Assembly (NCBI GenBank): GCA_008632985.1
Contig: QPGO01000014.1
Span: 186,001-250,000 of the forward strand
DNA length: 64,000 nucleotides
Origin: Psammoneis japonica
Lineage: Eukaryota
Direction: 5' to 3'
Made by a program: the position numbers and the translations under genes. The notes under the pieces were generated by a model that searched no databases, was not told where the DNA came from, and worked only from the letters and a program-made list of their open reading frames with translations. Shown piece after piece: positions 1 to 25,441 of the stretch; the stretch's first letter is position 1, and each line of letters starts with the position of its first letter.

Positions 1-1625
1 GGTGTTGTGCAGAAATTTGGTTGCACAGAGCCGTGTGCCCCAATGAATCTCTAGGAAGCAATTGACAGGCTCCACGCAGACATCAACTGGCTGGCAGAAG
101 ACTTCAAAAATGATGATGATGGCACTGAGGTTGCTTGCACAACCTCCAAAGGAACTGCCACAGTGACATCTGATGAGTCTCATTTGAGTGGCAAAGGTGC
201 ATCTGCTTGGACCACACAGGGAACCCAGGATGACCACAAAACTGAAGGCATGAATGCAGCAAGAGGCAACCCTTCCAATGTGAATGTGTGCCAAGCAGAA
301 ATTGTCAGACAACTGTGATGACATGCATCATTTGCGATTTTCATGATGTCACCCAGGGACAGGTTTCTCTTGGATGTGACAGCAACCAGGCCTTGAAGAG
401 CTCCAACAACCCTGGGTTGCAAACTCACCAAAAATCAAAAGCAGCGCAATGTGTTGTCAGCACTGCACTCCTGGATTCAAAAATCACAGGTGTGATGGAC
501 CACTGTCAACATGAAAGGGTGCATGGACAAAATGACATTGCCTGCAAGGACCCAGACCATCCCTCCAGGCTAAATGCAGACATGGACTCAAGGGCCAAAG
601 AATGAATGGCTGACATGCTGAACAATCCCACCTGCACAGCAAGTGCAGGTGGAAATGTGGTCACTTTGGATCAGAAACAGGAAAGTCATGTCCAATGCTG
701 CAGATTCAATGCAACATGCAACCAGATGGCAGGAAAATGCTGCAGTGCTGAGCAGAAAAAGGGAGATTTTCCTCACTGAGCATCAGAGACGTCAGTTGGG
801 ACTTCCAGGTAAAAGCGACATCCAATCTGACACCATCCAGACAACAATGGGCAGCAAAGCATGTGTCTGGATCATGCAGGGTCAACAAGATGCTGTGCAC
901 ATGGGGCAAATCTCTGGCGCAGTCCTGCCCACAATGCCTTTTCCCCCAGTGGATGACTCAAACCACATGCTGGAATGTCAGGTGGAGAGTGCGGTGGAGA
1001 CATTGCACAACTGCTCAGCGACACTTCAAGAGTGGTTGTGCAAAGCAGAGATCAATCTAGAAATCACCAAAATCATGCTGCAGAGACTTCAGGAATGGAA
1101 AGAGGGTGTTCCAATGCAACAAATTCACTCACAAAATGATCTCATCTGGCAGGTGGTTGACTCTCAGGATTGGACAGGATGGGGCAGATTTGTTGAAGGG
1201 GGTGCATGTCTTTGGATTGGAAGTTTGCTCAGAATGCATGCCACAAATGGGCAAACTCCAGGAGACAAGGCCAAAGGCAGGTCAGATTTCTCATTGTCAA
1301 GGCTTGCAACGCATCATGGGACCAATGGGAACACCACAACAGCACAGTCCACCCGGCCAACATGATGCCAACAGAGGCACAAGCCAAAGCCATTCAGGGT
1401 TGGGTTTGAGGTGAGTTTGCATCAGGTCCTCAACAAGAACTTCCACCAATTGACATGAGGACATTCAAAGGAACTCTGGATGAGTTTTTGAGCAGCACTC
1501 TGGAATGCCTCCAAGCCTGGCTGAACAATGTGAGTGCAGCTCACAACTCTTTCTGATGACTGCAAGCAGAGCAACAACACCAGGCACATGAGCTCATGCT
1601 AGATTGGCTGCAGAGTGCCAACAAC
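1..1625 (+). mobile_element. Decayed 3' part of a non-LTR retrotransposon ORF2 (RNase H-like domain plus C-terminal region)
   Basis: Frameshifted motifs GTATVTSDESH (cf. SDGSY), GASAW, VCQAE (cf. SYRAE), LGCDSNQAL, RLNADMDSRAK, QDWTGWGRFVEG and WDQWEHHNSTVH, typical of RNase H-carrying diatom LINEs. Confidence 0.7.
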
Positions 1626-3256
1626 AACGTTCAACATTTACAATGAAGGGTGGGGCCTTCTTGTTGTCATTGTTCACATTTCATGTGGTTGATCCAAACC
1701 AGTTGGGTGACCTCTTCTGGAAACTTGGGTGATGTAAAAGCCATTTGGCAGTGCAACAAGCAGTGATCTTTGAGTCATTTGTTTGTTTGGGTTGCCCATT
1801 TGTTCTTGGGTTTTGACACCCTGTCTTGGCTTCTCTTCCTTGAGGGTGGGGCTGTCTTTGAACACCACAAACACCTTTTTTTGTCAAAGACACCACAACT
1901 GGATCAAACATGGGATCCCCAACCAATGTGTGTGCCTTTGCGTGTCATTCCAAAATGGTTGACTCAAACTGGTTGGTGTCTCTCTTTAGAAGATGGCTGC
2001 ATTGGAGAGCCAGTGGATCATCAAGTTTGTCACCTCCTGTGCCAATCAAGAAACACACAACCATGCCCAAAACATGACTCTCTTTCCCTCAATGAGTTTG
2101 AGGAAACTTGACCCAATTGTAAAAGGGTTTGCCAGAATGACACCTGGGGTGAGCCCTCACTTAACCAACACCTTCAACATGTGCCTCTGTGGCTCCAATT
2201 GTGCACTTTGTGGTGGGACAATGCCTTCTGACAGCATGGCACAAACACTTTGTCACTGCCAGCTGCAGCTCCAGTCCCTGTGTTTTGGAGAACCATTCCT
2301 GAGTGACATGGGCCCAAGTCTCAACCTCCCCAGATGTGCCAGTGCAACATTCAACCAACACTGTCTGCATGGGCTCCAGCAAAACGAGCTGCAACTTTGT
2401 TCCATTTCCTTCACCTTTTTTTGGTTCATTTTTGTTCATTGAACAGAGGCCAAAAGCTCTTGCCTCGCAGTTGTGGCAAGCATCTTTCCTTGCAGGTTGT
2501 TTGCTGTCTGGACTGCAAATGACAAATGTTGTTTTTGGGCTTGTGAACTGGGCTCCTTTTGCTTGTGATCACATGCCTCACAGGTGGAGGAGGAAAAGAT
2601 TTTTCCAACACAACACTGGACTCATCAATTGCAGCATTGCAGCAATTGAGGTGACACTTTAGAGCAAACCAGCAAGGAAACACCATCCCAGGTGGCTTGA
2701 TGCAACAAGGGTTTGAGCAAATGAGCTCTTCTTCCTCCAGAAAAGGCATTGTCATGAGACTGTTGCAGTTGACAGAGATTTGGATGCATGGCCAGGGCTC
2801 ATCATGGCAGGAGAACATTGTTTGCATGGAGGAACAGATTGCATGCTTCCTGCAATCCACATCAGCAACTTGAACAAGTTTGTGTGGGCAGAATGTGCGT
2901 GCACTAAAGATCCAAGTGCGTCCACTCAACATCAAGGGGGCAGATGAAAACTCTTCACTCAATGTCCTTTTGGAATGCAGAAGAAACAAACAGGGCAATG
3001 ATGGATGACTGCAACCAATCAAAGGCCAAAGAATCAACTGACTCAGTTTGGCATGTCAAAAGAGACCAGAAGGCAAGCAAGAACAAAGCAACAAAAGGGT
3101 GGAACCTTGAAAAACTGATTAAGAAGCCATCTCCTGTGAAGCAAAAGGTGGTTCTTGATGCATTGCTGAACACCAAGACTGCCCAGCAGGACCAGAAGAT
3201 TGGTGGAGCAAAGAGGATTGTCAAAGCAGCATGCATTGACACTGACAAATGAAGTG

Positions 3257-3470
3257 CAAAGTGGTCACCTGCAACTGAAAAGGGTTGTCTCAAGAAAGAT
3301 CGGTGCACTGGGTCATGGCATCAGAGCCCAAATGCGGTCATGAAAGACAGCTCATCAATCAGGTGGGAGAAAGTTGACACTGAAAAATGGAACACAAAGT
3401 GATCACCTGCAACTGAAAAGGATTGTCTTGAGAAAGATTTGTGCACCAGGTCATGGTGTCAGAGCACCAA
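3257..3470 (+). repeat. About 75-bp direct duplication, 138-bp offset
   Basis: caaagtggtcacctgcaactgaaaagggttgtctcaagaaag (3257) vs caaagtgatcacctgcaactgaaaaggattgtcttgagaaag (3395). Confidence 0.85.
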
Positions 3471-5024
3471 TGGACCAATTGTTGTGAAACCAGATGACTG
3501 GGCCACCTCCTCTTGGTGCTGCTGCAAGAGAGTGTTGGCTCTGCATGAGGTTCCAGGTCATGAACAAAACAAGAACACCACCCACAATTGGTTGGATGAA
3601 AAGAAACAAGGGGACCCAACCAAGCATGCTGTTTCAGCAGAACAAGATGAAAAAGACATCAATGGGCAGATGGATTTTCTTTTGATGGTGGGTGTGGGGG
3701 AAGGACAGATGGCATCAAAGGTGGTGGCACGTGCACTGCGTGCGACAGACATGCATCACTGACAGATGTTCATTTGAACTTGCAAAATCTTTGGATGCTT
3801 CGACCAACCAGAATTTGTGCCAGAGATTTGAACAAAAGGTGAGAATGCAGGAATGTGTTGGAACATGCACAAGTGGGCCAGGCATGTCAGTGGACCATTG
3901 TTTGGCCTGGCACTTGATTTCTTGCATCACTCTCCACTTGGTGCAAGTGTCACTTTTTCACAAAAGAGTCAACATTCACACCACGCCATGCCAGTCAATT
4001 GACAGGGACCACGCCACTCCAAAGCCCACAGCAAAATGAGGTGAGAGACAACACAGTGAGATGCAAATGGATTGAACATGACTCACCCAGTTGTGTGGCT
4101 CATCATGAACAGAGCAGCAACAAGACTTGTCAGCTGCAATGCAGAATGATGCACCAGTGACAACTGTGATGCAACAAAGCAGTGGATCACTGGTCACAGG
4201 TGGGACTCTGACCACATCTGTGATGGAAGAACAAGACAAAATCATGAGCAAGGAATGAAAGAAAAGAGCAATGCAGCAACAAAATGAGTGACAGGGACAA
4301 GATTGTTTTAGAGAACTGTTGCAAGAATGCATTGCTTGGACAGCACAAGTTTCTGAATGACAAGGCCCTGAGCAACAACAATGGAAAGGTTGTAAAGACA
4401 GTGCCATCCAAGCTCAACATGTCCCAAGAAAAGACAGCTTGAATTTGGAACGTGTTGAAGGATGAGACACAAAGGCAAATGATGAGAAAAAGGAACAATG
4501 CCAGTGGGGAACTGGAGAAAGAATTTTTTCACAAGCGCTGCATCAAAGTGGAATGTGCCAGGCATGGGGAACCAAAACAGTGCTGACACACATTGCTTGG
4601 TGTGTTGTGAGTGCACAGAGTGCATGGATCACAAAAAGGGGAGCACACAAGCAGATGACAATGCCAAGATGCCATGTCCAGAGGAAATGCCAGAGGGAAA
4701 AAACAACATGATGTCCCAAAGCCATTTCACAATGCACTTCCTGCTGATTGTGGCAAGCATCAGCTCAAATCAAGATGTTGCTTGAACAAGTTGGCACCCG
4801 CAAGTGACAAGGCATTCGGCCTGCCGGTTTTGGAGAACAACTGGAACAAGCGGGTGTGCATGCTGGGGAAAACAAAGGAAGAGTTGAAGGAGGCCAGAGA
4901 CAAGTGGCTCATTCTGAACACAAAAGGGAGCAACAGGGTGGTTGGCAAAGCACAAAAAATCATGGTTGGAACATGGAAGGACTGGAGAGGTGCAAAAAAT
5001 TGGGAAAACAGATTCACAAGCACA

Positions 5025-5896
5025 GGGTCTGTGGGAAGTTGCAATTTTTGCCACCTGCATGTCAAAGCTGATGTGAGTTGTGCCTGCCAGCACAAAATCT
5101 GTTGGGTGAGTCAAACTTGTTGCTGACACCATCTCGTAGAAAAGACATTTTTAGAAACAACTTTTGACACAAAAAATGTGTGAAAAAAAGTTGCACAAAG
5201 ACCCGGATGTGCATGGTTGAAAATGTCCAAACTTTGATGTTGTGCACAAGTGTGCTGGACTTCTGTGTGTGAAAGAACCTGCGCGTGCATTTTCAACAAT
5301 GTGCAACAACTTTAAAAATGCACACCTGGGTTTTGTTTTTTCATGTGGAGTTTGTGCTGGAAGTCTCACAGGAACTGCAATGATGCTTGGATGTGCATTT
5401 TCAAAAATGTGGCACAAAAGCATGTGCACAGCCGCACATGCTTTTTCCACATGACAAGCTTGCGTGTTTTTGACACAACTTTTGACACAAATCAAAGTTG
5501 TGCCACATTTTCAGAAATGCACATCCGGGGTGTTTTTGGAATTCCTGCAAGACATCCAGTCCAAATTCTGCGTGAAACAATGAAACCCAGATGTGCATTT
5601 TGAAAGTTGTGCCACACATTTTGAAAAATGTGCATGTGGGTTCTTTGCATGTAGAAGTTCCGCACATTCCTGCACAACATGAAAATTGGGACATTTTCAA
5701 TTGTGCACATCCAGGTCTTTGCACAACTTTTTTTGTCTCACACATTTTTTTGTGTCAAAAGGTGTGTCTAAAAATGTCTTTTGTGCAAGGTGGTGTTGGC
5801 AACAAATTTGTCTCATTCACAGAATTTGTGCTGGCAGGCACAATTCAGATCAATTTTGACATGCAGTTGGCAAAAATGGTGATTTCCCGCAGACCC
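5025..5896. mobile_element. Foldback/MITE-like element with about 390-bp imperfect inverted arms and a putative 3-bp TSD (ACA)
   Basis: 5025-~5417 aligns to the reverse complement of ~5497-5896. Termini are GGGTCT...AGACCC, with ACA on both flanks (5022-5024, 5897-5899). A second copy of the terminus lies at 5983-5998. Confidence 0.8.
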
Positions 5897-8310
5897 ACAT
5901 GGAAAAAGTCTGTGTGGCTGTGCAGCTGGCATTGCAAACGGTCAAAACTCACACAGATCCTCCATTTTTTGCTTGAAAACATGATTTCCTGCAGACCCAC
6001 AGACTGAGCAAGGATGCAGATGAGTGCAACAAAGCTTGGTCAAAAAGGAGTTCTGGGAGTGCATGGACAGCAGAGAAGAAACCCAGTGGCCATGGACACA
6101 GGAAAAATGTGATGGCCATGTTCATGCAGTGGAACAAAATGGGGCAGAGTCATTGACCTTTGTTGTTGATGCAGCGCTGATGAAGCACAATTGTGTGGCC
6201 ACCCCCAACAAATGTGATGAGAGCCAAATTGCAATGAACCCAAAACCTGCATGGAAAATGAGTGACTGACCCAAATTGTTCAATTTGGCCCTGCCCAAAT
6301 TGTTCCCCCCTCAGATGTTGGGAGCACCCAAAGCACCAGGGCACACAGCTTCTGACACATTTTTTGTCAATTTGGAAGGGACAAGAAAGAATGACACCCT
6401 GGTCATCACAGCCAAGATGTTGCAGCACAAGCATGTGAGGGAGGGTGGGGCTGCTGCTTGCTTTCTGCAGCTGACCCTGCAAAAGTTGCAGCCATCAACA
6501 AGGAAAAGAAACCAACCCCTGACAGACATGCTTTCAAGAAACACCTGTGGCAGAATCTTTCAAAAGTTCTGCCAGACCTTTTGCTGAAGTCACCAAAGTG
6601 GAGCAAGCACTTGGCGAGGCACTGCAAATTGCAGCAGTGATGCCCAGTTTGACAAGGCAGCAAAGTGCACCACCAAGTCCATTTTGGCTCAGCATCTGAT
6701 GCTCGACAAGCAACAGCTGGGATGAAAAGTCAAATGAGTTCTTCCTCTTGAAACAATCAGAGGTGGCGCACCTGCATGTTTGCCCTTTTCTTTTGGGCAA
6801 CATCACATCTGCATCTGCAGCTGCCTTCTCAATCACTGTTTTTGCTCAAAAACAAATCTTCTTCATGACCCTCTGTTTTGCACCATGGCAACAAAAAAGA
6901 TGCTCTTGGGATCAACGAGAGGCTGACACAACAAGTGAATCTTGCATTGAAAATGGCTGGCAGAACCTTGTTGGCGCTGAGCTTGTCAACTTGCTCAAGC
7001 TTCTTCTCCTGTTGAGTGTGCTCCTCATTGTAGACTGTTGGAATGACTTTCTTGTTGAAGTGAGTGGCCGTTTGATGTTTTTCTGCATTTTTTGGTGTGC
7101 AAATCATGGGCCCATGTGAAAATGTGCAGGACAAAGATTTTTGCAAAGCGATGGCTTTTTGAGCCACACCACATCAGCTGTGCTTCAAAACATCTTTTTC
7201 TTGAAAGTTTGTTTCAAGCTGCCACTCTAACTTGCATTTGACCATTCTTGTTTGCTCAATCCATCTGAAGTCCCTCATTTGTCCTAGAAGCTCTGTTGTC
7301 AGACACACAGCTTGGCAAGTTGCTGTTGTGCAACCTTGAGCATTCACTGCATCATTGCGTGACATGAAGCAACAATCTTTTTCTGTCCATCCATTGTGCA
7401 TCTGTCCAATCTCCCATCCAAATTTTGTGCTTTGGCTCTCTGTGGACATTGGATTGCACAATGCTGCACCCCCCTTTTTGCCTTGAATTTGACCCAAACA
7501 GCTTGTGATTTTCATTCAGCCCAAAACTTGTTTTGCTGCACTTGAAGCACAACAACCATGGTGAATTTTAGATGACACAGGTGAGGGCAATGGCTGGAGA
7601 TGGGGCGGCCTCGTGCTCTCTTCACATTGTCATTTCTGATGCATGTGGCTGTCACATCATGAAGAGAGCAGGAGGCCACCCGCTGTTTGAGAACAATCAT
7701 TGCATGATGTGCATCAGGCTGTTGTGCATGCTCATGTGCTGCATTTCATTCTGTCTTCTGCATGCATGTCTCTGCAGATTTTCCTGCGAAACGTCAAAAT
7801 GCGCATCGCGTTGTTTTGGGAAAAAAATTTGCACTCATGACCTCCATGGTGCAAATGGCATCATGGCCTGACAAACAGAGCACCAACGGTGATGATGGGC
7901 ACCATTGCAAGTCTGCAGCTGTTTGTCTGGTCTTGCAGGATCCTTCATTTGGGAAATGCGGTGTTGAGTTTGTAAAGAAAGGAGTTGATTTGTGTGCTTT
8001 GGATCAGACAAAAAGCAACGGTGTGGAAATAAATTGATTGTCACCATTGTCAACAAGCGCCACCTCACACATCACTCATGCTGAATCTGTTCTTTGCTTG
8101 CACAGGAAAACGCCATGAGCTCCTGTCATGCTGCCAACACAACAGGGGAAACGCGTGTCTTGCCCAAGCATGGCAAAGCGGATCAGAGATGAAAATGGGA
8201 AACAAGCAACGGAGCGTTCCAAGAAGTGCAAGGCTGAACGGTCCTCCCACCAGCATGGCAAAAGTCAATGGCAGCCTTGATCTTGCCCCTCTGGTGCAAG
8301 CAAGCGTGCA

Positions 8311-10100
8311 ATGTTGGATGACAACTCTGCCAGCAACAAATCACAAGTCAAACACACTCGTTGCAAGGAGGGTGGTGGGAAACTCAAGTCCACCAACCTT
8401 GAAGACTCACCATTCAATGGGGAAAACCCCACCTCTCTCAGCTTCTTGAAAAGTGACTTGAGGCAGGTGTGGGTCTCATTGCATCTATCTTTGCACCTGG
8501 TGTCAAAAAGGCAGTCGTCTCCCAAGTTTGCACAGCATCCACTGTGCAGCGAAAGTGGAGAATCAATGTTCAATGCGAACTTGACCATTGCTTCATCGTG
8601 CAAAGAAGTCATCGCGGCAGTCAAACAGTTGTCACTTGTTGTTGTTGATCAAGAATTGACAACTCACAAAACCAAGAACCCACGCATGTGCAGTGAGACA
8701 GAGCCACAAAATGAGCAGCCAACCACAGAAAACTTCCCAACAAATTCGAAGCTTGCTCCGACAATGACAGACAAGCATTGGATCAAGGCAATTCAGGAAG
8801 CATCTTACAAGGAAATCGGAGGCTTGAGTGACTCAGAGGATTCCAGTGCATCCCTGCAAGTAGAAAAGGTGACATTGGACCTTGTTTGTGTCACCAAACC
8901 CACAAAAAAAACAAAAAAGAAGAAGCACATTGAAGAAAAACGAAATCAAGGTGCACCTCCATTTGCTGCCACCGGCCAAAAAAGAGGGTGACGTTTGCAA
9001 GGTGCTGGACAAGAAGGATGCAAGATGTGTTGGAGTGCTCATGCCAGATGTTGACGGCATGGTGGGGTGGACGCACTCATTGCACGCAATAACTGAATCA
9101 GCTTTGAATGATGAACGACATGAAGGCTGCGTCGGGAAATGTTCGTCGCTTTTGCTGGCTGCCGACTGTAACTCTCCAAGAGTCGTCAGCTCTGCACCAA
9201 GATTTGAAAGCATTCAAGAATGCCCAACAAGCCAACAGAAGCAATTGGAGAAACGAGTTCATGCACTCGTGTTAGCTTGGGGAAGAAAAAGGAGAGGGAC
9301 AACGCATGTGAGTCAGACAAGGAGCCACAAGTTGTGCTGTTGCAGGATTCTAATGATGCATTGTCTCCTGCAAAGCGTGCGCAGAAGAGATCTAAGAAAG
9401 ATGAGATGAACTTTGCCAGAGATGAGCTTCCTTCCTTGGTTGATCAAGTTTGTCAAGACATTGCTTTTCACAGACCTTCCATTCAACGAATTGTGCAGGG
9501 CTCTCTCTTACGAGCATTGTGAAGTGTTGAGAAAGTTTTGGGTGGTAAAAATGAAGAACTGTGACAATGATGAACATGGGCACGTGTTTGATCACTGTGC
9601 CTTGAATGAAGACGATCCGGACATGTGGCCCAAACTGGATGAGTTGCCACCAAGTGTCCACCTGCACCAAATCAAGGATGCTGAAAAATGCAGGGGCATT
9701 CCAGCACGTGGTAAATTTGATGTTGGCTCTAACAACATGCCAAGACGACATGCAAACAGCACGGAGACTGACCCACTGGCCAAGAGCATTTTAGAGATGG
9801 CCAGTGCTGTGAGCGGCAGAGGTGCCACCCCATCCACGTCCACCCCTGCTTCTTCAGTTGGTGCTGCTCTCACAGCTGCTCCACAACAGATGATGATGAC
9901 TGTGTTGTTCTCTCAAAGTCCAGGCAGTGAGAAAGAGGATTCTGTGTCAATCCCAATGGCACAAGAGAACACAAGGACTGTGTTCAGTTTGTTTCAAGAG
10001 TTGAACCAATCGAGCTCTCTTTTTCAGCTGGAGATGACAGATGACCGAGAAGCTTTCTGCCCAGCAAGTTGAAATGGGATGTGGGGAAAATCAGATCAGC
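8311..10100 (+). pseudogene. Second, unidentified ORF relic inside the Tc1-like element, convergent with the transposase
   Basis: Overlapping frameshifted ORFs 8311-8991, 8882-9409 and 9413-10072 with protein-like composition; no recognised motif. Confidence 0.45.
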
Positions 10101-10879
10101 CTTGGACTGGGACTTGGCGCGAACTTCTACATCTCATTCAATGCTGAGCCAGGTCCAACAGACAAACATTTTACATCCATGGAAGACGTGTGGGCATTCT
10201 TCAAGGTTCCAGCTGGGGATGGATGGGGTGCATGTGAACAAGGGGAATGGAAGGGCGTTGCCCTTTCTCATTTGGTGCAGTGTCTTCCTGGCTGTTGCAA
10301 CCTGTGTGCTTTGGGCAAGCGTGTTGCTTGTGACATTTCTTGCTCAGCAAATTGGCCGATCAACCAGTCTTGCAATGTTGAGAGTTGAGATGCTCCATGG
10401 CCAACCTCACAAATTGTCAAGCAAGTCAAGCTGAGTCATGAATGGCATGGTGTCTGCCTTCAAGAATGAGCACAACAGCAGTGAAACCCGCCAATCAAAT
10501 GGGTGTGCAGTGATGGAGGTTTCCTCAGACTTGTGCCAGTGCAAATTGCCCCGTCACATGCATGCAGAAACATGTGCATGTTGTTTGAAATGGACAGTCA
10601 CACAAGTTGGCATGGTGAACATTGATGCAAAGAGCAGCACAAGAAATGCAGCACAATCGAGACCAGATTGCATTTGTTCAGAAATGCAGAAGGGTGAAAA
10701 AGAAAAACACCACATGCGGCATGTCAAATGAAACAATTTAGAATTTTGAAATGCACCCACAAATCTCAATGCACTAGAAATGAGTTTCTGTTTTACAGCG
10801 CAAGTGCTGCAGCGGCCATCATGAAGGTGGCCACCAACCGCCTTTTCCCCTCATCCCCAAGCTTTTCACAACCGGGCGG

Positions 10880-11900
10880 CTTCGCCTTTCGAAACAGATT
10901 TCAAGCTCCAAAAGAGCATGAATGTGGGCAGTGCACCAATCCACGCCTTTTTCGTAGGTAAAGTGCTTGAGTCCTGCCTTGCACACACTGAAAAAGTGTT
11001 CAATGGGGTCAAGGTCGGGACTGTGGGCTGCTGCAAAGAACAGTTTTGCACCAGCACCCTCAATCAAATCTTTCACGTGCAGAGAAAGGTGAGTTGATGC
11101 ATTGTTCATGAAGACAACAGATCTTGGCTCACCCCATGCATGCTGACCAAGAACAGGGACCAACTTCTCCTCCACATGCTTCTCAAACCGCTCCATGTCA
11201 ACAGTTCCTCGATTTGGGTCATTGTCCTCAGTGCTGTGCTCCCACTCCACAATCTTGCATGCTTCCCACACAAACCCATTGACATCTGCTGCTGCCATCA
11301 ATGTGTGCTGCTTGCAGACGTCCTCTTCAAAGAATGCATCAATGACAGGCGGTTCACCCTTCTTCCCCCAGCCACGCTGACGTCAAGAGGCATCACTTGA
11401 TTGGTGAGTCTTGTCAAGAAAGAGTGCTTGCTCTGGATGGCTCGCGTGTCATCTTTTGCACGCATCTTGAAAGCATTGCCGCTCATGCTCACATCTTTGT
11501 CATGCTCAAACTGCCAGTTTCTGGAGAGTGCATCCAAGGCTGTAAATTCTTTGCCAAATTGTGCTTGCATGCCAAACTTTGCCAAGTTTGGGTCTCATGC
11601 TGAGCTGGATTTCATCGAGATGCAGCCGTGGCTTTTCCTCCAGCAAATCAATCAAGACTTTGTCATCACTGCATGAAAAGGCAGTTCTTTTGCCAACTCC
11701 TTGCGATCCAGTTCTCCTCTTGACCGACCGCATTCTCCTGCGAGTTTCCGACTGGGTCTCTCCAAATTTAAGACAGCGAAGAAACCAACCACATGAAACG
11801 TCCTGTGCGGAACATCCGCATCGCAAGTTTCCCAAGTGGAGCACAGCTTTCCAACTTGTCGTCCATCACCATTGGCGTGTGGGCATGCATCATTGCCTAA
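10880..11900 (-). pseudogene. DD34E transposase pseudogene (HTH plus DDE_3)
   Basis: PRLHLDEIQ...STIWQRIYSLGCTLQKL (HTH), FLDETH, and VFMNNASTH-x-HSPDLDPIEHFFSVCK with exactly 34 residues between the second catalytic position (now N) and E; stops and frameshifts present. Confidence 0.9.
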
Positions 11901-12785
11901 AAGGTCCATTGCCTCATTGATGAGATTCTTTTGCTTCTTCACATCATCGTGACAAACACCTCCAAATCGCCGAGAGCCGCTGATGTTCTTGCTCTTGTTG
12001 AAAAATTCATCATCGACCCAGAGTCCCCGACGATGCAATTCCACCTCCACAAATTCGACATCTGGGTGGACCAACATGACAGATGACTTTCTGCACAAGC
12101 AAAGAACAGATTCAATGCAAACAACATGTGAGCCGGCGCTTGTTGACAACGGTGACGTCCAAATTGTTGACGTGCCGTTGCTTTTTGTCCAATCCAAAGC
12201 ACACAAATCCACACTTTTCTTTATGAATGTGGCACCGTATTTCCCAAACGAAGGATCCTACAAGACCGGACGATAGTTACGAACAAACGATGGTGACTGT
12301 CGCTGGCGACTACGTCGTAGATGGCGAGTTGCTGCGTCACTTGGTGCGATTCGGTGCACGACAAAAAATTTTTTTTTCTAAAACAACGCGACGCGCATTT
12401 TGACGTTTCGCAGGAAAATCTGTAAAATGCATGTTCAGATAATCAACCGAAACGCAAAAAAAGAAGACGCAAATGCCGGTGCGCCGTTTAGAGCAATGCG
12501 ATTGTTGATGCGATTGATGTTTTCGAATGGAGAGGTGAGACGCCAAGTCTCGTTTTAGCTAAAAAGTAAATACAATGCGAAAAAGAGGTAAAAAATCAGG
12601 TCGAAAACAAGGGCGTTTCCACCGAAAAGACTGCAACAGAAATGCGCCCTGTCCCTTGCGTCAGGATTCAGGATGATTTTCATCAAGCATCCAATTGCAG
12701 TTTGAAGTTCTCATTTCACATAAAAAATTTCAATCTGAATCGAGAAGCCTAATTCGATGATTGTTTGAAGGAAGAAGACATTGTC

Positions 12786-15414
12786 ATGGACACCAATCAA
12801 AAGATGACCAAGACCATGCCAAGGAAGGAAAGCGAAGGCGAGATGGATGATGCTGCCTTTGACAACGCTGTTCTGCAACCTGAAAAGGCAGTCGATCAAG
12901 ACACCTCCAGACAGGAAGCGCACAGCGACAAGCGCGTCATGGGTTGGAAGAAACACAAAAAACTCATCCCACTGTTGGTCATCGCAGTGGTTGGTGTCGT
13001 CGGAGTCGTCATCGGCGTTGTCGTTGGAGGCAACAGTGGTGGATCCTCTGGCAGTGATCCAACCCCTGCGCCGCCCCCTGTGAAACTTGTTCTTCAAAAC
13101 AAAACACTTGACGACTTGTCAATCACCTCAAATGGAGTGAAGCCCATGAATGGGGGTGCCACTCAGGTTTGGAAACAAACTGCTGCCAAGCACTTTGTGG
13201 AGGCAGCTGAAGCCAGCCTCCCGGGCATTGCCAACGTCACCTCTGTCTACGTCTTTCACGACCAGCACCCAGCTGCTCATTGTCATCATTTGCGCCACTT
13301 GCAGTTGACACCAGAGCTTCAAGTCTTCTTTGACCAGGTTGTCTCCTGCAGAGTCGACTCGTCGTCGAGCCTCATGCCTCGCGACATTGCTTTGTTCCCA
13401 TTCGGTGCAACCCAGCGACGACAGGCATGTCTCGCCACATTGAAAGAGACAAGACTTCCAGCATTCACTGATTTGGCATCGGCGTTGTCCGTGTCCACAT
13501 CTGCGACATCTCCTCCAATGACCCCAGAGCCCACCACACTCCCAACACCCGGAACAACGACCAACTCACCCACGCCTCAACCGACTGTGAGTTCAACACC
13601 TGCTCCCAGCAATGCAACCATTCCACCCACACTCGTTCTGACTCCAGAACCAACATCCGCATCGACACCCAGCAACGCACATCTCTCGGGTCTTTGGTCA
13701 CAGCTTGGTGCAGACATTGTCGGATTTGGCAGTGGAGATCGGTTCGGTGACCCCATTTCCATGTCGGGCGATGGCACCATCTTTGCTGCTGGTGCATGGG
13801 GTGCCAGTCAAGTCCAAGCATTCCAGTGGAACGGAGTGACCTAGGTCTGCCAAGGTGAAGCACTCATTGGGACAGGCGGCCACTTTGGTTGGTCTGTTGC
13901 CCTCTCAACGGACGGCAGCGCCATGGTGGCCAGAGCCAGGTACGGCGACACCCACCATGGACAGAACACTGGATGCGTCCGAGTCTTTTAACCCTGACCC
14001 TAACCCAAGACTGTCAATCTGACAGAAGTTGAAGGCAAATGGCAAGAATTCAAACAATGACTCCTCACTGCTGTCTAAACAGCAGATGAGTCTCCACTCA
14101 AGAGACCATTGCAGGAGCCGAAAGACGTGTGAGTCGGCACAATCGGGCTGCTGTTGTCATTCTTGTGAGCCTTGTGGCTCGAAAGCAAACTACATTGCGC
14201 GCAAACGCGCAGAACTAAAGCACACAAAACTGTGCGCGGCAAACTAAACAGCACGTGACATTTCGCGCGCACCTGAATCCTGTTCAAATCCTGTCACTCC
14301 CCAGTTTGCTTGAGGAGTCACAGAAACAGATTCGACTTCGGATTGACTAAAGAACTTTGGAGTCAAAGCACCAAAACATGAGGAGACAAGAAAGGATCAA
14401 GATCCTAGAGCAACGTTGCATTCTCCAAGTGGGTCATCTTGAGATGAGCTGCGTCTCCCCAGTTGCAGATGCCATTGTGCTTTTCAAAGCTCAAGCTGGT
14501 GGAATGGATCCAGTTGGCTCCAACATGGTCAAACGCTTGTGGGTGTGGACGACTTTGATGATTTTGGTTGGTCTGTTGCCTTGTCGTCCGACGGTGCGGT
14601 GGTGGCGGTCGGCGCCAATGAACCCAGCAATGACGGTCACGGTCATGTGCAAGTCTTTCAGTGGAACGCATCGAATTGGGTGCAGCTTGGCCAAACCCTC
14701 TCAGGGGAGAACGTTGATGATCAGTTTGGTTGGTCTGTCTCCTCCTCGTCTGACGTGAGTGTTCTCGCGGTTGGCGCAAGATTGAGTGACACCAATGGAG
14801 ATCGATCCGGCAGCGTCAAAACATTTCGTCTGAACGAAACATCCAGTTGGGTCCAGTTGGGGCAAACTCTAGTTGGAGAGAACGCGGGCGATGAATTTGG
14901 TGCGTCCATCTCCTTGTTGGCTGGCAGCATCACATTGGCGGTCGGTGCTCCATTCAACAATGACAATGGGGATGACTCCGGCCACGTCCGAGTCTTCCTG
15001 TGGAATGGATCCAGCTGGGACCAACTTGGCCAGACTGTTGTCGGGCAATCCGCAGGTGATGGTTTTGGGCGGTCCGTTTCTTTATCGTCCGATGGAAATG
15101 TGCTGGCTGTGGGCGCGGACTACAACAACGACAGTGGATTTGACTCCGGCCATGTGCGTGTGTTTCAATTCTTTAAAGGGATGTGGGCACAAGTGGCAAG
15201 CACCGTTTCTGGCAAGAGTGGAGATGATCATTTTGGTGGTTCGGTGGCTCTGAGCGCCAACGGCACCATTGTGGCTGTGGGTGCGGATCAGTGGGACAAG
15301 TTTGGAGACCCACCTGGCTGCGCCAGTGTCTGCCAGCTGGACATGCAGCAGAACAAGTTTGATTTAGTTGGCAAAGAAGAGGAGACTCAATTACAAGGCA
15401 GCCAGCAAGCGTGA
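12786..15414 (+). pseudogene. Membrane-anchored FG-GAP-like beta-propeller repeat protein, disrupted
   Basis: TM segment LIPLLVIAVVGVVGVVIGVVVGG, P/T linker and repeated WxQLGQ...GD.FG.SVSLS.DG..LAVGA...G.VRVF units; in-frame TAG at 13842 in a Trp position; insertion at ~13989-14498. Confidence 0.85.
13989..14498. mobile_element. About 510-bp insertion starting with telomere-like (TAACCC) units
   Basis: Interrupts a repeat between VRVF and WNGSSW; starts taaccc-tgaccc-taaccc; no GT-AG boundaries. Confidence 0.55.
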
Positions 15415-15779
15415 ACGACACGACGCTCTGCTGGCAAGGTGTCATCGAGTGGCATCACAGTTCACACATTTTGCATTTACAGGCACCAGTGTGAAAGTGG
15501 CATTCTTGTGCTGATCCTGTTGGTGACACTGATGCGGGTTAGAACGGTGCATTCTTTGGGGTGTCGGGAAATGGCACGAGCAAATCCATTGCCACAGCTA
15601 GACTGGCTGAGACAGTGCCAAATTTGTTGCCGCTTTTTCATCCAATGCAACACCCACCGCAGCTGACAGCTGGCATCAATGACATCTCCCCTCTTTGAGC
15701 CAAAAATCATTGTCTGGCACAAAATCTTTTTCGAAAAATGCCCTGTCATGTCCAAAGGCACGAAGCGGGCATCAATGGC

Positions 15780-16620
15780 ATCTCTCCTCTTCGAGTCAGC
15801 AATCACATTGTCTGGCACAAAATTCATTGCTGGCTCTCATCCCAGCTGCCGCCTCATCAATGGGAATGCCTGCTGGCTGCCTGTGCATGCATTGGCCAAT
15901 CCTGCTGGTGTCAACAACATCCCAGGTCAGCAGCAGCCCGTGACTTTGGAGTGCACTGCAGCAAAAACTGCACAGGCAGCAAACTCATCTCGTTTGGTGC
16001 ACTGAAACCCCGCTGCCATGAGCACTTGTGTGAGCATGGCTGCGCCAGCATCTGTCAGCTGGAGATGATGCAGTGGTGCAAGTTGGGTTTGCTTGACAAA
16101 GAAGCTGAGAAGCAACCCAGCTCCAAGGCAGCCAGCAAGCACAAACAGCATGATGTTCTGCTGGTGAGCTTTCATCCAGCAGCATCACTTTGTGCTCTGA
16201 CTTGTGGGCCCGGTTTGAAAGCAGCAATCTTGCACTGTCCTGTTGGCAACGCTGCTGTGGGTTGGAACAGCGCTTTCTTTTGAGCACTGGGAAATGGTGT
16301 GAGCAAGTCCATCACCACATCTGGGCTGGCTGGGGTGGTGTCAAATTTGTTGCTGCTTTTTCATCACACAGTGCCGCGACCATCATGACAGCTGGCATCA
16401 GTTGCACCTTTCCTCTTTGAGCTGGCAATCACCATCTGGCACAATGTTGTTTGTTGCTGGTTCTCACTCCAGCTGCCACCTCATCAACGAGAGTGCCTGC
16501 CAGCTGCCTGTGCACACATTGACCAACCATGCTGGTGTTGACAACTCCTGGTGAGGTCAGCGGCAGCCTGCGTGACTTTTGAGTGCACTGCAGCAAAAAA
16601 GTGCTGACAGCAGACTTGCC
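15780..16620. repeat. Dispersed about 200-bp repeat (copies at ~15810, ~16430 and ~23865)
   Basis: Shared core tctggcacaa...gctggctctcatcccagctgcc...gtcaacaacat...cagcagcc...gcagcaaaa. Confidence 0.75.
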
Positions 16621-17200
16621 CTCCCATGACCATGAGCACATCTGCCTGGCAACAGGAGAGCCCATCAGCTGGAAGTGCCAACAACCTTGGCTGTTTGCCT
16701 TGTGTCATAGAAGGGGCTGCCACTTCATTGCATTTTGGGGCCACGCTGCCAGAAGGCCTCACACTCCGCCTCTGGCCAATCATGGCACTCAGTCTTTTTG
16801 TTGGCAAACAGGTTTTGTCTGGCACTGGAATGCAGTGCATGGCATGCAGGGCTGTTGTCCTCTTTCAGCTGCTGACATGGAAACCACCACTTTGTTGACT
16901 GTGCCCATGGACTTCCAAGTGTTTGAAGCTGCCTCTCCCAAGCACACAAGCAGTGGTCATTGACATTGTCTACAGCTTGAGCTCACCACAAAAAAAAAAC
17001 AGACCACAAAAAAGCAGCTCTGCTCCTTCAGTGCACTTTCAACATGACAAAGTGCTGCGGAGGTTGTGGACATGGTCAAGTGCACAAAATGCAAGAAGTT
17101 CACTGCCTGTCTCTGTTGTTGGTTGATGCTCTGTGCTTGACAACCTCAGAGGTCAGCACCTCAACAAGTCACAGCCCAAAAAGCAAGCACCTTTGCAACC

Positions 17201-17487
17201 CACCCCAGAAGACACCATGGCCAATGTGTTCTTCATGATGCAGCTTCGTCCTTTCTTGACATGCTGGCATCTGCTCTGAAGAGTCTGGCAGTGATCTCTG
17301 GTGTGGGGTTGTGTGCCCTGTGGCTGCCACATGATGATGAGTGCACCCCAGAAGACACCGTGGCCAATGCATTCTTCATGATGCAGCTTCATCCTTTCTT
17401 GACATGCTGGCATCTGCTCTGAAGAGACTGGCAGTGATCCAGGGTGTGGGGTTGTGTGTGCCCCGTGGCTGCCACATGATGAGTGCA
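17201..17487 (+). repeat. Tandem duplication, about 144-bp unit x2
   Basis: caccccagaagacacc...gtggctgccacatgatgagtgca occurs twice. Confidence 0.9.
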
Positions 17488-17549
17488 GAGCAGGCATGCA
17501 ACAAAGACAAGAGCGCTTGTTCTCTTTCAAGGTGAAAAGATTTTGAAAG

Positions 17550-19300
17550 GGCCAAGTGAAAAAAAACTGTCCCTCTGGGGCAGGGTTCAAGCAACTGAGA
17601 AGTGCCACCCTCCAGCACTTTGTTGTGTCTTGCAGTGCTGATGCTGCACAGTCTTGACTGCTGGAGCTGCTTCCATTGGTGCCATCTTCCATTGCAATGG
17701 CTCTAATGGACCTTCAACCTGCAAGACTTTTCAACTCAAATGGTGCAAATTTTGTGGGCTGGGGCATGCATTGTGCGTGCATCAGCAGCTTCAGAAGCAC
17801 GGCAACCCAAACTGCATTTTCTGCTCATGCACTTCTCTGCTGCAATTGCTGCTCTCTGGGAAGTTGCGTGCTGACACTTTCTGCCACTGCCAAAACTGAA
17901 AACATGCCAAAGCATGGCCGAAGCATGTGAAAACAATTTCCAGAAAACTGGCAGGGCCCTGCTGCAGAGAGAAGAAGATCCATGATGACAGTGTCCATCA
18001 GTCATCTGCAATGACACATGAAGTGAACTGAGTCAAGTTGATTGTGGATGTGAGAACATGACACTCATCATGTTCTTACAATCACCCAGCATCAGTCTGG
18101 TGACAATCCTCCCTTGTGTTGTGCAGTTGATTTGCTTTGTGTGGAATCCCACCCAGGCAGCACCACTCAAGCTTCATCAGTTGATTTTCATGGCATGTCA
18201 CTCATTGCCTTTTGCTGGACACAGCTGCATGGAGCACATGCTCTTCTGACTGAGGACCCCTTGTTGGTGGCATGGTGTGGTCAGAGACACACATGAGGGA
18301 GTTTCTGGGTGTGCTCACTGCACACTGGCCAACAGCATTTCTCATGAAGTGCAAATGCGACTCTCACCTTGTTGAGCTGTGATGAACTGTTCTCAGCAGT
18401 GTTTCTTGATGTTTGGTCTCCTGGTGATGTCCCATGGATCAAGAAGGCAATGCAAAAATGCTCACATGCCCAGATTGCATGACCTCTTTTGCTGAGGCAG
18501 ATTCTTTGTCTTCCATGGTTAATTTGGAATCTGTTGGTCAAGTTGTCATGAGCAATTTTTTCATGGTGTGTGGCATGCCTCAATTGATCATTGTTGAGGC
18601 TGACTTGGTGTTTGCTGGAGTGCTCAAGTGTCTGTTTGAACTGTTGCAAGTGCCCGTCAAACCCGTGTCATGCAAAAATCACTGCGGTGTCTGCAACGAG
18701 TGTTTCCATTGGCATCTGAACAAGATCAAAAGAACCAACTTGGCTGACATGAGTCAGTTGTTGATCCTTTGGAAGTTGGGTGTTCTCTTTGCTGTTCATG
18801 CATGGAATGCATCTCCTGTGTCAACACTGCAGATGTTCCAAGATCGCCAGTGGCTGTTGGGCAAGAGTTTTCCCTTTTCCTTTGGACATTCAAGCCCAGC
18901 CCATTCACGACTTGGCATCAGCACCACAACATGCTCTTGAGCATTTTGAATCAACTGCTCCTTTGCTGTTCAAACAGCACAAGTTGTTGAACACATCAAA
19001 TGATGCATGGCATCACAGGCACACTGAGCTGAAGCAGAGCATGCCATGAGTTCAATCCAGGAGATGTGGTTTGTGTGCACAAACAAGTCAGGTTGGACAG
19101 ATCATGAGGCATTTCTGCCAAGCCACTTTTTTGCACTGAGGGTCCACACAGGGCATTGGAAAAGGTCTCCCCTGTTTCTTGCAAGCTCCAATGGCTGCCT
19201 TTTGTCCATGGGTCAGGTCGTCCCAGATGGTTTTGCAAGGAGAATGATGCACGAATGATGCTGTTGCCATCTGCAATGATTTTTCATTGAAACACCTGAT
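17550..19300 (+). mobile_element. Decayed Ty3/Gypsy-type pol (integrase Zn-finger, rve core, GPY/F region)
   Basis: CAHCTLAN, LDVWSPG, GMPQLIIVEAD, NECFHWHLNK (cf. ERFHRYLNK), FAVHAWNASPV and EGPHRALEK (cf. GPY). Confidence 0.75.
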
Positions 19301-21599
19301 GGCTGACACTGGTGCAGGAGAAGACTTTGCCTTCAAACCCTTGCAAAGCATGTGGTCTGATGAACCTCCAGTTGAGACCAATTTTCCCAATTCTGATTTG
19401 CAAGACAATGCTCAAGATTTGGAAACAGCAGATGACCTGGATGGCAACTTGGATGAAGAGGGCTCTGCCACCAATGTGACCCCTCTTCCTGGTCCAGTGC
19501 CTGGTGCAGTTCATCCAAGCACCAAGCAGTTTTTCATCAAGCTGTGTGAGTCTGCATCCAGCTCAACCACCAAAATGTTCTTTGTCACCTGTCATCCTCA
19601 AGCTCATGTGACTCCTGTGCTCCATGCAGCACAAGCAGACTAGCCTGAGTCCAACATTGTCTCATGCTGCCACTCAAGGCATGTGTCACATGTGTTGGTG
19701 GGCACAGCAGTGCTCTGATTGGAACAAGAGATCATCAGTCAACAGCAGATTTTGGCTGAGTGTGTGTGCAAGCTCTGTGCAGTTGGTTGAGAGCCAGAGC
19801 CTTTCCCAGTTGGACCTCAAAAGGTGGATGAAATTTTGGCAACAAATGACACTCTTGTTTGGCTGTTTGTTCCTTTCCCTGGTTAAACACATTTTGACCC
19901 ACAGACATTTAGTTCAGACACTGATGAAGCAGGGAGCACATCCCTGCCAACAAAACACATGCACAATGCAAAACTTTGAACAGGACCAAAGATTTTGGAA
20001 ATTGTTGCCAAAAGTCACTCTTCCATGGTGTCTGCATGCGTCCCCAGCATGCATGCATCTGTCTGTCACTTTCTTGCACCCTGTTGCCCTGGTCCATTCA
20101 GATGTGTCATCCGGGTTTGTGTGAGGCATGGATCTCTTTGCAGTTGTCCAAACTGCAGGTCCAAAGTCTGTCCTGGGGCTTGCAATGCCATTGGACAAAA
20201 CTGTCACAGTTGAAACTGCTCACATTCATTTGTGATCATTTGAATGGAAGAGTTTTGTCATTTGTTTTGGCATTCTTCACAATTGAAAATTTTGTTTAAA
20301 TGAGGCAATCGCGTGAAACTGCCTGGGTGCGGAAAAAATCAACACAACCAATTTGATGACACGTCATGCCATTTTTCTGCTGAATCGAACCACCACAAAT
20401 GCAAGTTGTTTGTGTCATCCATGTGACCAAAACAAACACAGTCTTCACAAAACATTTGTTTGCATTCAAGCAGGATGCATTGAACATTGTTGCAGGTGTG
20501 GCACTGATGCACTTTCTTTGTCACGCGCTGATGTCACTTTCAACAAACTGCTGTGTTCAATGTTTGCAACACTTGTTCCTCTTGCTGTGATCGTGCACTT
20601 GTTCCTTACACACTGGAGCAATCCCATTGGGGGTTGCTGCAGTCAACACACTTGGCCAATCCAGTTGATCATTGCCATCCTTTTCCACTTTGGCGTGCCA
20701 CAAATGGGCATGACACCCTTCATTGGCAAAATCCAACACATCATCAAATGCATCCATGACATGATCTCACACGCATTCTATGAAGTTCCTGCTGACACAA
20801 GCACGATGAGTGCATTCCACTAAGATCCTGTCACATGGACCCTTCAAACATTCCATGATCCAATCATTGACCACTTCAGGATCTGCCAGAAAGAGCCCCA
20901 CATTCTGACAGGTCCACGTTGCATGGCGGGACTTCGCTTTGACACGGTCTGGCAATTGGGGATGCCACCAACAGTGACTGCACCTGCCGATGTGGAAGGC
21001 AAGAACACCGGCACAAAGGAAGTCATCTTGTGGAAGGTTTTTTCAATGTGTCATGGAAAAGATGACGTTTGGTGCCATTTGCACCCCAAAATTGGTTGAT
21101 GCCCATGGTCAGTGCCCCCCCCCCCCCCCAAAGGGCTTGTTTGGAATTTTGATTTTGGGCACATGCACTCCATGAATGAAAAAGAACAGTTGATGCAAAG
21201 CATTCAAATTTTTATGGGTGTGCGTGGCATGTGGACTCTTGTACAACAAAATGCATGAATGATTTGTGCACACAACAATGTGCAAATGACGGCCAGTGTG
21301 GTTCACCGGGTTGCCATTTCATGGTTTACCATGACTGACCAACTCTCTTGCTGAAATGCCACACGTGTGTCAACATTTGTTGAGTGTGTGTTGAATTTCA
21401 AAGCATTGATTGCATTCATCTCTGTGGTGTGCATTTGTCATGAATTGTCTGCAGTGAACAAAATGGTTGTCTTGCATGGATTTAAAATCCATGCAAAGCT
21501 CCCATGTAGCCAACATCTGTGATGACTGATGAGGTGTGCTTGTCCTCCCAGCACTTGGGCTGCGTCATGACAGTTCAAGTGTTCCAAGTTACATGCCAC

Positions 21600-22310
21600 T
21601 GCAGGCTGGCCATCTTTGCCCAGGACAGTCCATTGGTGGACCACTTCGAATGACACGGTGAACACTCCCAGCATCTTTGTTGATCACACCTGTGGTTTCA
21701 TGTGTCAAGCTTCAAGTTGGTTTCTCCACTGTTGCAGTGGTGTGAGCAAAGCATGCATTTGAACAGATGACAAGTGGTCAGCTTGTTGTCAGCCAGGAGC
21801 ACCTTGCCACCAACATGGCTTTCTCAAGACCAAAACCAATTTGCTCTGCACATTGGGAACACTCAACAGTGTGTTTGCCACTGTGGTGCCAGTGCCCACT
21901 GTCAGAGTGGCATCTCTGAGCACTCCATCCACCAGGTCATTTCCAACATGGCAAAAGAAGCTGCAATCCTTTGCACATCTGTTCATTGGTGCAGAGCAGC
22001 ATTGGCAGCTCATTGCAGCCTGTGTCTGTCAACTGCACCACCTGTGCCATCATGCGCCATTTGCTGCAACACTCTAGTGTCAAATGGGCTTTGTCCTGCC
22101 AATGTCCACACCAGAGGCCCACCATCCCAAGCACGCCATTGTTTGCACAATCTCAGCTGAAGTGGCACCAGACAAGCCCAAGAAGCAACATGGGTCTGCC
22201 AAGGACTGGAGTTGTAAGGGACAAGCCAGGTGTCCACTTTGGCTGGTCTGCCACACTTTTGCACCAGCACCATGGCTGTTGGGGCAAGGTGCAGCAAGAT
22301 GCAAGCAGAG
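21600..22310 (+). mobile_element. Decayed Ty1/Copia-type integrase
   Basis: Frameshifted LCPGQ..VDHFE, SIFVDHTCG, AKHAFEQM and HCGASAHCQSGISEHSI (cf. YCG..AHHQNG.AERSI). Confidence 0.75.
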
Positions 22311-22334
22311 CAAACTCTGGCTGCACCTGTGTCT

Positions 22335-24649: not shown

Positions 24650-25441
24650 CATGTGTTTCATTTCCAGCACCAGACAGAACCCACTTGTCAACACCAACTG
24701 AAAGCACCTTGGACCCAGCAAACTGATGAGCATGCAGCACCTCAACAAAAAATGGCTGAAAAAGCAAGCACCTTTTCAATGGACCCTGGAAGATGCCAGA
24801 GCCAATTTGCTCTTTCCATGTGCAGTGTGTTTTTTCTTGACACTTGCATCTGCTCTCACGGAAGAGAGGAGGTGCAGCGCCAGCTGCTGTGCGCACATTG
24901 CCCACGCTCTGTGCTGGCTGTGTTGTTGTTGTGTTTTGTCTCTCATGGCAGTGTCCATGTGATGCTGTCACATGCCCTGTGACTGCCACATGAGTTCAGA
25001 ACAGGTTTGCAAAAAATGAAGGTGCTTGTTTCCTTTTTCTTTTTTTTTGCATGTGTTTCATTTCCAGCACCAGACAGAACCCACTTGTCAACACCAACTG
25101 AAAGCACCTTGGACCCAGCAAACTGATGAGCACGCAGCACCTCAACAAAAAATGGCTGAAAAAGCAAGCACCTTTTCAATGGACCCTGGAAGATGCCAGA
25201 GCCAATTTGCTCTTTCCATGTGCAGTGTGTCTTTTCTTGACACTTGCATCTGCTCTCACGGAAGAGAGGAGGTGCAGCGCCAGCTGCTGTGCGCACATTC
25301 TTGCCCACGCTCTGTGCTGGCTGTGTTGTTGTTGTGTTTTGTCTCTCATGGCAGTGTCCATGTGATGCTGTCACATGCCCTGTGACTGCCACATGAGTTC
25401 AGAACAGGTTTGCAAAAAATGAAGGTGCTTGTTTCCTTTTT
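24650..25441 (+). repeat. Near-identical 400-bp tandem duplication
   Basis: 24651-~25040 and 25051-~25441 differ at only a few positions. Confidence 0.95.

Follow-up and report, generated by a model that had tools for sequence, protein, structure and literature searches.

The window analysed here, a stretch of 64,000 nucleotides from Psammoneis japonica (contig QPGO01000014.1, positions 186,001 to 250,000, renumbered from 1), most probably holds a dead Tc1-like transposon at a TA site, one side of which lies in a tract where TpA and CpG have been turned into TpG and CpA by transitions. The element is of the Tc1/mariner type (DDE_3, DD34E-type transposase), occupies positions 7775-12422 and carries 334-bp inverted arms. 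In the scenario that we favour, one Tc1/mariner transposon would have been inserted at a TA in its host, by the kinase relatives given below probably a raphid pennate diatom or something close to one, and then inactivated; its left end and interior would lie in a kilobase-scale tract in which TpA and CpG are converted by transitions to TpG and CpA, and the outer ~190 bp of its right end would lie beyond that tract. The left arm would thus have lost most of its CG and TA steps while the right arm kept them, and the change of the left target-site copy from TA to TG would be one more hit of the same kind. The sequence context of these changes, their direction and their regional confinement are all shown by the data. 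Because the two arms are equal in age and without function, their divergence would record a regionally confined mutation process. The transposon itself is ordinary, and its value lies in the clean, internally controlled record that it provides, from a new lineage, of a mutation process that has scarcely been described so far.

Differences between the two arms

The spectrum of differences was read from the well-aligned outer and inner segments of the left arm (7775-8108, plus strand, 334 bp, beginning with 5'-CAG) and the right arm (12088-12422, minus strand, 335 bp), which together provide 238 ungapped sites and leave the middle third of the arms aside. These sites comprise 197 identities, 32 transitions and 9 transversions, and 26 of the 32 transitions fall on pyrimidine-purine (YR) steps (26 of 118 YR sites versus 6 of 120 others; odds ratio 5.4, p 1.1e-4). 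Seven steps read CG on the right and TG or CA on the left, and three read TA on the right and TG or CA on the left; the reverse direction is represented by one step (TA on the left, CA on the right) and by none for CG, a balance of 10 versus 1 (p 0.012). Eight CG steps and one TA step are common to both arms. At 7 steps, TG in one arm faces CA in the other, a swap that is expected if an ancestral CG or TA decayed separately in the two arms. The original prediction had expected differences to be enriched at TA once the full arms were aligned, and the alignment exhibits this enrichment for TA and CG steps alike: transitions affect 3 of 8 sites at right-arm TA steps and 7 of 30 at CG steps, versus 6 of 122 non-YR sites (p 0.011 and 0.004, respectively).

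Dinucleotide counts, which require no alignment, give the left arm 2 TA, 9 CG, 40 TG and 34 CA and the right arm 8 TA, 27 CG, 27 TG and 27 CA. The YR totals are therefore nearly equal, and the share of CG plus TA among them is 11/85 on the left versus 35/89 on the right (p 1.2e-4). In the outer ~190 bp, the right arm (12232-12422, 191 bp) holds 7 TA and 20 CG, and its left counterpart 0 TA and 7 CG; the inner parts are alike, with 1 TA and 6 CG on the right and 2 TA and 2 CG on the left. The middle of the right arm is its richest portion in these steps (11 CG and 4 TA versus 1 and 0 on the left). Positions at which TG or CA of the right arm faces CA or TG of the left all lie at or below 12231, and TA and CG are dense from 12238 outward. 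This concentration of the contrast in the outer 190 bp places the edge of the TA- and CG-depleted tract near 12231 (approximately 12222-12238), inside the right arm. The tract around the left arm has observed/expected (o/e) ratios of ~0.04 for TA and ~0.13 for CG, and the right flank is rich in both. Such a fourfold difference in surviving CG and TA between two arms of one element is hard to ascribe to selection or to age, and points to a process of mutation whose regional edge is sharp.

The original prediction was built on a pair of 38-mers, TCTGGTCTTGCAGGATCCTTCATTTGGGAAATGCGGTG in the inner segment of the left arm (7926-7963, plus strand) and TCCGGTCTTGTAGGATCCTTCGTTTGGGAAATACGGTG, the reverse complement of 12233-12270 in the right arm (minus strand). 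These were said to differ at four positions, each at a CG or TA step, and they do so exactly: the differences stand at positions 3, 11, 22 and 33 of 38 and read, right versus left, CG/TG, TA/CA, CG/CA and TA/TG. Five CG and TA steps, covering 10 of the 38 positions, are present in the right 38-mer, and all four differences lie inside them (chance 0.0028); four of the five steps read TG or CA on the left and one has been kept. The 38-mers had been taken for the terminal inverted repeats of the element. They do pair as an inverted repeat, but they are not its termini, since they lie ~150 bp inside the 334-bp arms. The flanks given with them, TG|CAG on the left and TA|CAG on the right (the right one read inward), are likewise as described and belong to the outer ends of the arms, not to the 38-mers. 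Hence, the observation of four differences at CG and TA steps and of the unequal flanks is confirmed, and the interpretation that the pair of arms records a mutation spectrum is supported.

Other copies of the element were sought in the contigs of runs X1-X3, which served as a read-level check. The right 38-mer lies within a 49-bp unitig (12231-12279) that has a k-mer depth of 130, versus 65.5 for the contig to its left and 66.3 for the contig to its right. This doubled depth means that, at the k-mer level, a second locus has the states of the right-arm 38-mer; as far as other copies are visible, they bear the right-arm CG and TA states, in line with the polarity originally proposed. A third variant, found in run X2, has TA and CG at 12228-31 where the window has TG and TG; at 12249-50, it has CA, as opposed to CG in the right arm and TG in the left. 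The three states at this latter step argue for a CG ancestor.

It is conceivable that the differences between the arms were inherited from a master element that was already asymmetric, in which case the pair would be uninformative on any regional process. Terminal repeats of Tc1-like elements are often imperfect, and the X2 variant is nearly identical to the right arm (only 5 letters differ over 12176-12280), so that several right-arm TG/CA states predate this copy. Yet no left-arm 31-mer is common to another locus, the left arm being at single-copy depth (65.5 throughout 7000-12260), and the contrast in the outer 190 bp matches the break in composition between the flanks (TA o/e 0.04 on the left, TA- and CG-rich on the right). 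The interior coding sequence, moreover, displays the same directional loss relative to outgroups, as detailed below. We therefore regard inherited asymmetry as an unlikely source of the pattern.

Several points nevertheless weigh against reading the arms as the record of a regional process. The evidence comes from one element, and its arms may have differed from each other as soon as it was inserted, as the master copy may already have been asymmetric. The near-identity of the X2 variant implies that this copy started out with some of the right-arm TG/CA states, and the 7 swaps between TG and CA cannot be assigned to the time after insertion. Runs X1-X3 derive from the same sample as the assembly and are not independent of it. 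Under unbiased scoring, the alignment of the middle third is not superior to that of shuffled sequences (-63.5 versus -71.1, sd 10.1), and the two separate only when transitions are tolerated (z ~3.2). The outer 56 nt of the left arm retain 5 of 6 CGs despite their position in the tract, possibly because GCG contexts may resist the process. Ordinary decay was also at work, as is evident from the 9 transversions and the 6 transitions outside YR steps. Finally, the chemistry of both the TpA and the CpG component is something that we infer by analogy with other systems.

The transposase remnant and the direction of change

The dead transposase (DDE_3, DD34E-type) is encoded on the minus strand at 10790-12077, where it is distributed over three reading frames. 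Its DDE_3 domain (PF13358) is recognized at 10819-11382(-) with an E value of 5.6e-13; two homologous transposases, P0001 and P0002, score 1.4e-21 and 8.3e-21 for the same family. When P0001 (445 aa) was used in a tblastn search, its residues 5-416 aligned over 12065..10856 of the minus strand in three frames, the main segment possessing 60% identity over 295 residues. In-frame TGA stops are found at 11506-08, 11500-02, 11449-51 and 11383-85. The second catalytic Asp has been replaced by Asn (codon AAC, 11104-11106; FMNNAS); the spacing is kept, but the triad is broken in this copy. Counted on the sequence of P0001, 34 residues separate the D of DNAS from the E of NPIE, a spacing that we take to be the DD34E pattern of Tc1. 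A helix-turn-helix domain, HTH_Tnp_Tc3_2, scores E 0.0053 in the remnant, below the curated cut-off, and P0002 contains HTH_33 at E 1.8e-7. No match for P0001 was found among solved structures.

Judged from their sequences, the two homologous transposases polarize the change independently of the arms as TA>CA/TG and CG>TG/CA. The comparison covers the 183 positions at which P0001 and P0002 agree. None of the seven conserved Tyr residues is kept in the remnant (four have become His, two Cys and one Phe), and only 13 of the 26 conserved Arg residues survive, ten others having turned into Gln (4), Trp (2), His (2), Cys (1) and a TGA stop (1). The 13 Arg residues that are kept comprise seven CGN and six AGR codons. 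A codon that ends in T precedes each of the substitutions N>D (two cases), I>V and T>A, and one E>K is preceded by a C. Among 15 conserved His, Cys, Gln and Trp residues, one His>Arg is the sole change that runs the other way (p 6e-4). Measured against P0001 alone, one of 19 Tyr residues survives and 11 are now His or Cys, and three in-frame TGA stops stand at Arg positions.

Could modified bases at TA and CG simply have been miscalled as TG and CA during sequencing or assembly? The contigs built independently from run X1 (depth 65.5) reproduce positions 7000-13200 with two differences only, although they represent the same sample; these are T>C at 9090, with loss of a TA, and G>A at 10539. 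The two mismatches may be assembly errors or strain differences, and to that extent they speak for an artefact. Miscalling, however, would not yield a coherent dead gene with Tyr>His/Cys replacements, Arg>stop changes and frameshifts, nor would it yield kilobase tracts with sharp edges, and we consider an artefact of this type exceedingly improbable.

Depleted tracts and the proposed process

The window is divided into domains of strongly different composition. In 1-kb bins at 1-8, 16-25, 33-36 and 62-63 kb, the o/e ratios are 0.00-0.09 for TA, 0.04-0.34 for CG and ~1.6-2.2 for TG/CA; the gene-dense bins at 26-33 and 36-62 kb have ratios of 0.4-0.76 for TA and ~0.8-1.3 for CG. The transposon is intermediate (TA 0.11, CG 0.52), its 2.7-kb internal sequence at 8109-10789 having values of 0.10 for TA and 0.39 for CG, and the window as a whole has a TA o/e of 0.33.

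Loss of CG can also be followed in a pair of paralogues. The segment 22337-23031, situated in a depleted tract, is 70% identical to the gene segment 14497-15174; 34 CG steps of the gene copy are TG or CA in the tract copy, 3 are common to both, and there are 0 changes of the reverse kind. Further degraded copies of this repeat-protein gene (14.4-16 kb) are present within the depleted tract at 23692-24072 and 16037-16599, as seen by comparison with 15315-16002.

A genome-wide bias from TA and CG towards TG and CA would offer a different account, in which the tracts are old neutral DNA at equilibrium and selection keeps TA and CG in genes. The scarcity of TA throughout the window fits such a bias, as does a repeat pair in a normal domain (44398-45136), among whose differences there are nine TA to TG/CA steps in either direction. 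It fails, in our view, on the two arms, which are equal in age and without function and still differ in CG plus TA content (11/85 versus 35/89). Furthermore, normal domains outside long open reading frames (13,428 bases) have ratios of 0.65 for TA and 0.93 for CG, and the steps between codon positions 3 and 1 in 11 long open reading frames have ratios of 0.54 and 0.85; these values are 10-20 times those of the tracts. A genome-wide bias thus seems very improbable to us, and the process appears to be a regional one.

Within the tracts, TG and CA succeed one another at random according to runs tests (z +1.5, +0.5, +0.8 and -1.9; no clustering), and this random order gives no sign of long single-strand editing runs. 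With regard to the origin of the tracts, none of 55 frames of at least 110 aa (1-7774, 15.8-25.6, 33-36.1 and 62-63.3 kb) matches a Pfam family at E <=0.01.

Among the TA steps that survive in tracts (1-7774, 16000-25000 and 33000-36000), a 5' A is present in 2 of 58 and a 3' T in 4 of 58, compared with 31% and 24% in normal DNA. Their commonest context is TTAA (11 of 58), and the surviving CG steps are poor in TCG/CGA and rich in GCG, which suggests that TAT/ATA and TCG/CGA were lost first. On the right-hand side of the element, the gene region at 12753-16000 has a TA o/e of 0.08-0.14 together with a CG o/e of 0.5-0.8, values like those of the element itself; in such TA-poor DNA that keeps its CG, the loss of TA seems to run ahead of the loss of CG or to reach further.

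For the mechanism, two components may be envisaged. Loss of CpG could result from the deamination of methylated cytosines in transposon DNA that has been silenced, and loss of TpA from A>G/T>C hypermutation of the type described for Bigelowiella natans, where it would be carried out by a proposed DNA-acting adenine deaminase. Together, these would amount to a tract-limited genome-defence hypermutation in a diatom lineage that erases both TpA (A>G/T>C) and CpG (C>T/G>A), drives its tracts to o/e ratios of ~0.03 for TA and ~0.1 for CG, and extends the chlorarachniophyte TpA hypermutation to stramenopiles. We put this wider proposal forward tentatively, as a serious possibility that falls somewhat short of being the favoured one. 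Under the genome-defence reading, a tract edge that can cut one transposon implies that the process would be directed by a domain of chromatin or of base modification rather than by homology between repeats.

A close parallel is provided by B. natans, as far as can be judged from the accessible part of the corresponding preprint (Mettrop et al., bioRxiv 10.64898/2026.01.13.699255). In two viral regions of this alga, 230 of 231 mutations were A>G/T>C, all of them at TpA, at a rate ~1000 times that of the background; its genome contains TpA-depleted clusters that are enriched in CpA and TpG and in DDE endonuclease and reverse-transcriptase domains, and an ADAT2-like adenine deaminase was proposed as the responsible enzyme (10.64898/2026.01.13.699255). 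The element described here resembles what the available text of that study reports in its TpA>TpG/CpA transitions, in their regional confinement, in the depletion of TpA with enrichment of CpA and TpG, and in the involvement of a DDE domain. A>G/T>C changes at TpA are found here in six of the seven conserved Tyr residues (now His or Cys), in the N>D, I>V and T>A replacements, all preceded by T, and at 3 steps of the arms.

There are differences as well. The host is a stramenopile and not a rhizarian, and the target consists of a DNA transposon plus tracts of unassigned origin. Depletion is deeper in the present case (TA o/e ~0.03) than the B. natans cluster cut-off of <=0.43 and the value of 0.45 for a region from a nucleocytoplasmic large DNA virus, both as given in the accessible part of the preprint. 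CpG is lost alongside TpA here, and the word CpG does not occur in that part of the B. natans paper. TpA as the sole target is ruled out by this loss of CpG (7 arm steps, 10 of 26 Arg residues, and 34 versus 0 steps in the paralogue pair).

Repeat-induced point mutation (RIP) of fungi shares with the pattern seen here the transition-only, dinucleotide-specific decay of transposons and duplications, the stop codons and the dead genes, and a duplicated gene segment is affected in the window as well. RIP turns CpA into TpA, however, and thereby enriches TA. It is ruled out here, since TA has been erased (o/e 0.00-0.09 in the tracts, 0.11 in the element). The extent of the affected DNA is also independent of the duplicated unit, unlike in RIP: the tract exceeds the repeat on the left and, on the right, ends within it.

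Deamination of 5-methylcytosine at CpG is similar in that CG>TG/CA changes are confined to transposon or silent DNA and the neighbouring genes retain CpG; by analogy, it would cover only the CG half of the signal. Diatom transposons are reported to carry CG methylation, and a RID-like DNMT4, to which no function is assigned in the accessible part of the source, is present in many diatoms (PMC9998398). In the literature searched, we found no report of TpA-directed or of combined TpA and CpG hypermutation in diatoms, nor any that links TpA hypermutation to the loss of CpG, and the only description of TpA hypermutation found in print is the 2026 B. natans preprint. A further paper (PMC9258296) was discarded as a diatom precedent, as the term hypermutation there concerns immunoglobulins only.

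If the TpA component is the same as that of B. natans, two major algal lineages would possess it, and in the present one it is linked to the loss of CpG and nearly complete. Should this be true, targeted hypermutation of silenced or foreign DNA would seem to be common in marine protists. In genomes of this kind, transposons and pseudogenes would predictably lose Tyr, Arg and the stop codons TAA and TAG, and they would therefore be concealed from homology searches and contain inflated open reading frames.

Anatomy of the element and minor features of the window

Direct reading of the ends gives CAG...CTG, with the CTG ending at 12422 and the right target-site copy, still TA, at 12423-12424. The left target-site copy (7773-7774) is now TG, where TA is expected; the junction reads GTCTCTG|CAGATT, and a contig from the same sample concurs. 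Transposons of the Tc1/mariner superfamily duplicate TA upon insertion. The TA and TG flanks fit such a target duplication that has since mutated, at a single site and by one base. The empty-site joint 7774|12423 was not found in the contigs of runs X1-X3, a result that is uninformative, as contigs drop rare variants and X2 and X3 hold almost none of this stretch. The word CATGCAT at 7761-7767 and 12427-12433 flanks the insertion in inverted orientation, so that the target, once reconstructed, is more or less a palindrome centred on the TA; this pair may be due to chance, as TG/CA-rich words of this type are common here.

Whole arms (7775-8108 and 12088-12422) align by blastn with 71% identity over 346 columns (E 7e-40). 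The left arm consists of an outer part of 56 nt (7775-7830), an inner part (7925-8108) and, between the two, a middle that is hard to align (7831-7924); the outer ends form a 56-nt inverted repeat with 52 of 56 positions matching. A direct repeat with a period of ~141 nt is present within each arm, and the outer and inner units of the left arm both begin with TCTGCAG. Scored against shuffled sequences, unit 1 and unit 2 match with z 6.0 in the left arm; for the right arm, z is 2.2 with plain and 3.4 with transition-tolerant scoring.

These subdivisions bear on the question of whether two elements are nested here, an inner transposon bounded by the repeats at 7925 and 12271 sitting inside a short element with 56-nt repeats. 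The alignment is poor over the 94-95 nt that separate the outer from the inner repeats, and a repeat search lists the outer and inner inverted repeats as separate pairs, both of which would be expected of nesting. Against this stand the single 346-column alignment that joins the whole arms, the other copies that pass 12271 (the unitig to 12279, the X2 variant to 12280), and the ~141-nt direct repeat within each arm, as in the Tc1 elements discussed below. Moreover, the middle of the right arm is richest in CG and TA, and hypermutation alone thus predicts poor alignment there. Nesting strikes us as improbable.

On their sequence, arms with an internal direct repeat would resemble the inverted repeat-direct repeat (IR-DR) arms of some Tc1-like elements. 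Long IR-DR arms are a feature of a DD34E group of Tc1-like transposons, of the Sleeping Beauty type. Like this group, the present element has a DDE_3 transposase, CAG...CTG ends, a TA on its right flank and long arms with an internal direct repeat. It is unlike the group in its 334-bp arms with units ~141 nt apart and in its length of 4.6 kb, which includes the 2.7-kb interior without explanation; it differs further in that the transposase is dead (stops, two frame changes, Asp>Asn) and the left target-site copy is TG.

Four frames of the interior (8109-10789) matched none of the Pfam families, and its long plus-strand frames are without detectable relatives; a 220-aa frame at 9410-10072 had no homologue among the proteins of near length that were searched. 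The interior contains no nested repeats of note. A blastn search of the element against the 64-kb window returned only its own arms and no further copy, and the arm repeats, with 2 matches each in the window (0 expected), do not recur outside the arms. A metagenome scan with a degenerate pattern of the outer repeat gave 0 matches, and a protein-guided scan gave 596 pattern matches, none of which was confirmed. The innermost block of the arms, TGAATCTGTTCTTTGCTTG... (8082-8108 and 12088-12121), is the piece that recurs in the largest number of other genomic contigs; in five X1 contigs, the match is confined to 33-37 bp at 12040-12121 and the flanks are unlike. This block may be a functional site that is conserved in the family.

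Elsewhere in the window, a palindrome with a perfect centre is located in a depleted tract at 5025-5896, its halves being 75% identical as an inverted repeat over 892 columns. A tandem duplication of ~394 bp at the edge of another depleted tract (24649-25039 and 25049-25442) has 98.7% identity and is much younger than its surroundings. On the minus strand at 36577-39636, a gene with one short intron encodes a CDK12/13-like kinase with a very long tail that is rich in Arg/Asp/Ser and Pro/Gly. The nearest named relatives of its kinase part (38638-39636) are from Cylindrotheca fusiformis (80% identity) and Nitzschia species (68-74%), which are Bacillariaceae-type diatoms.

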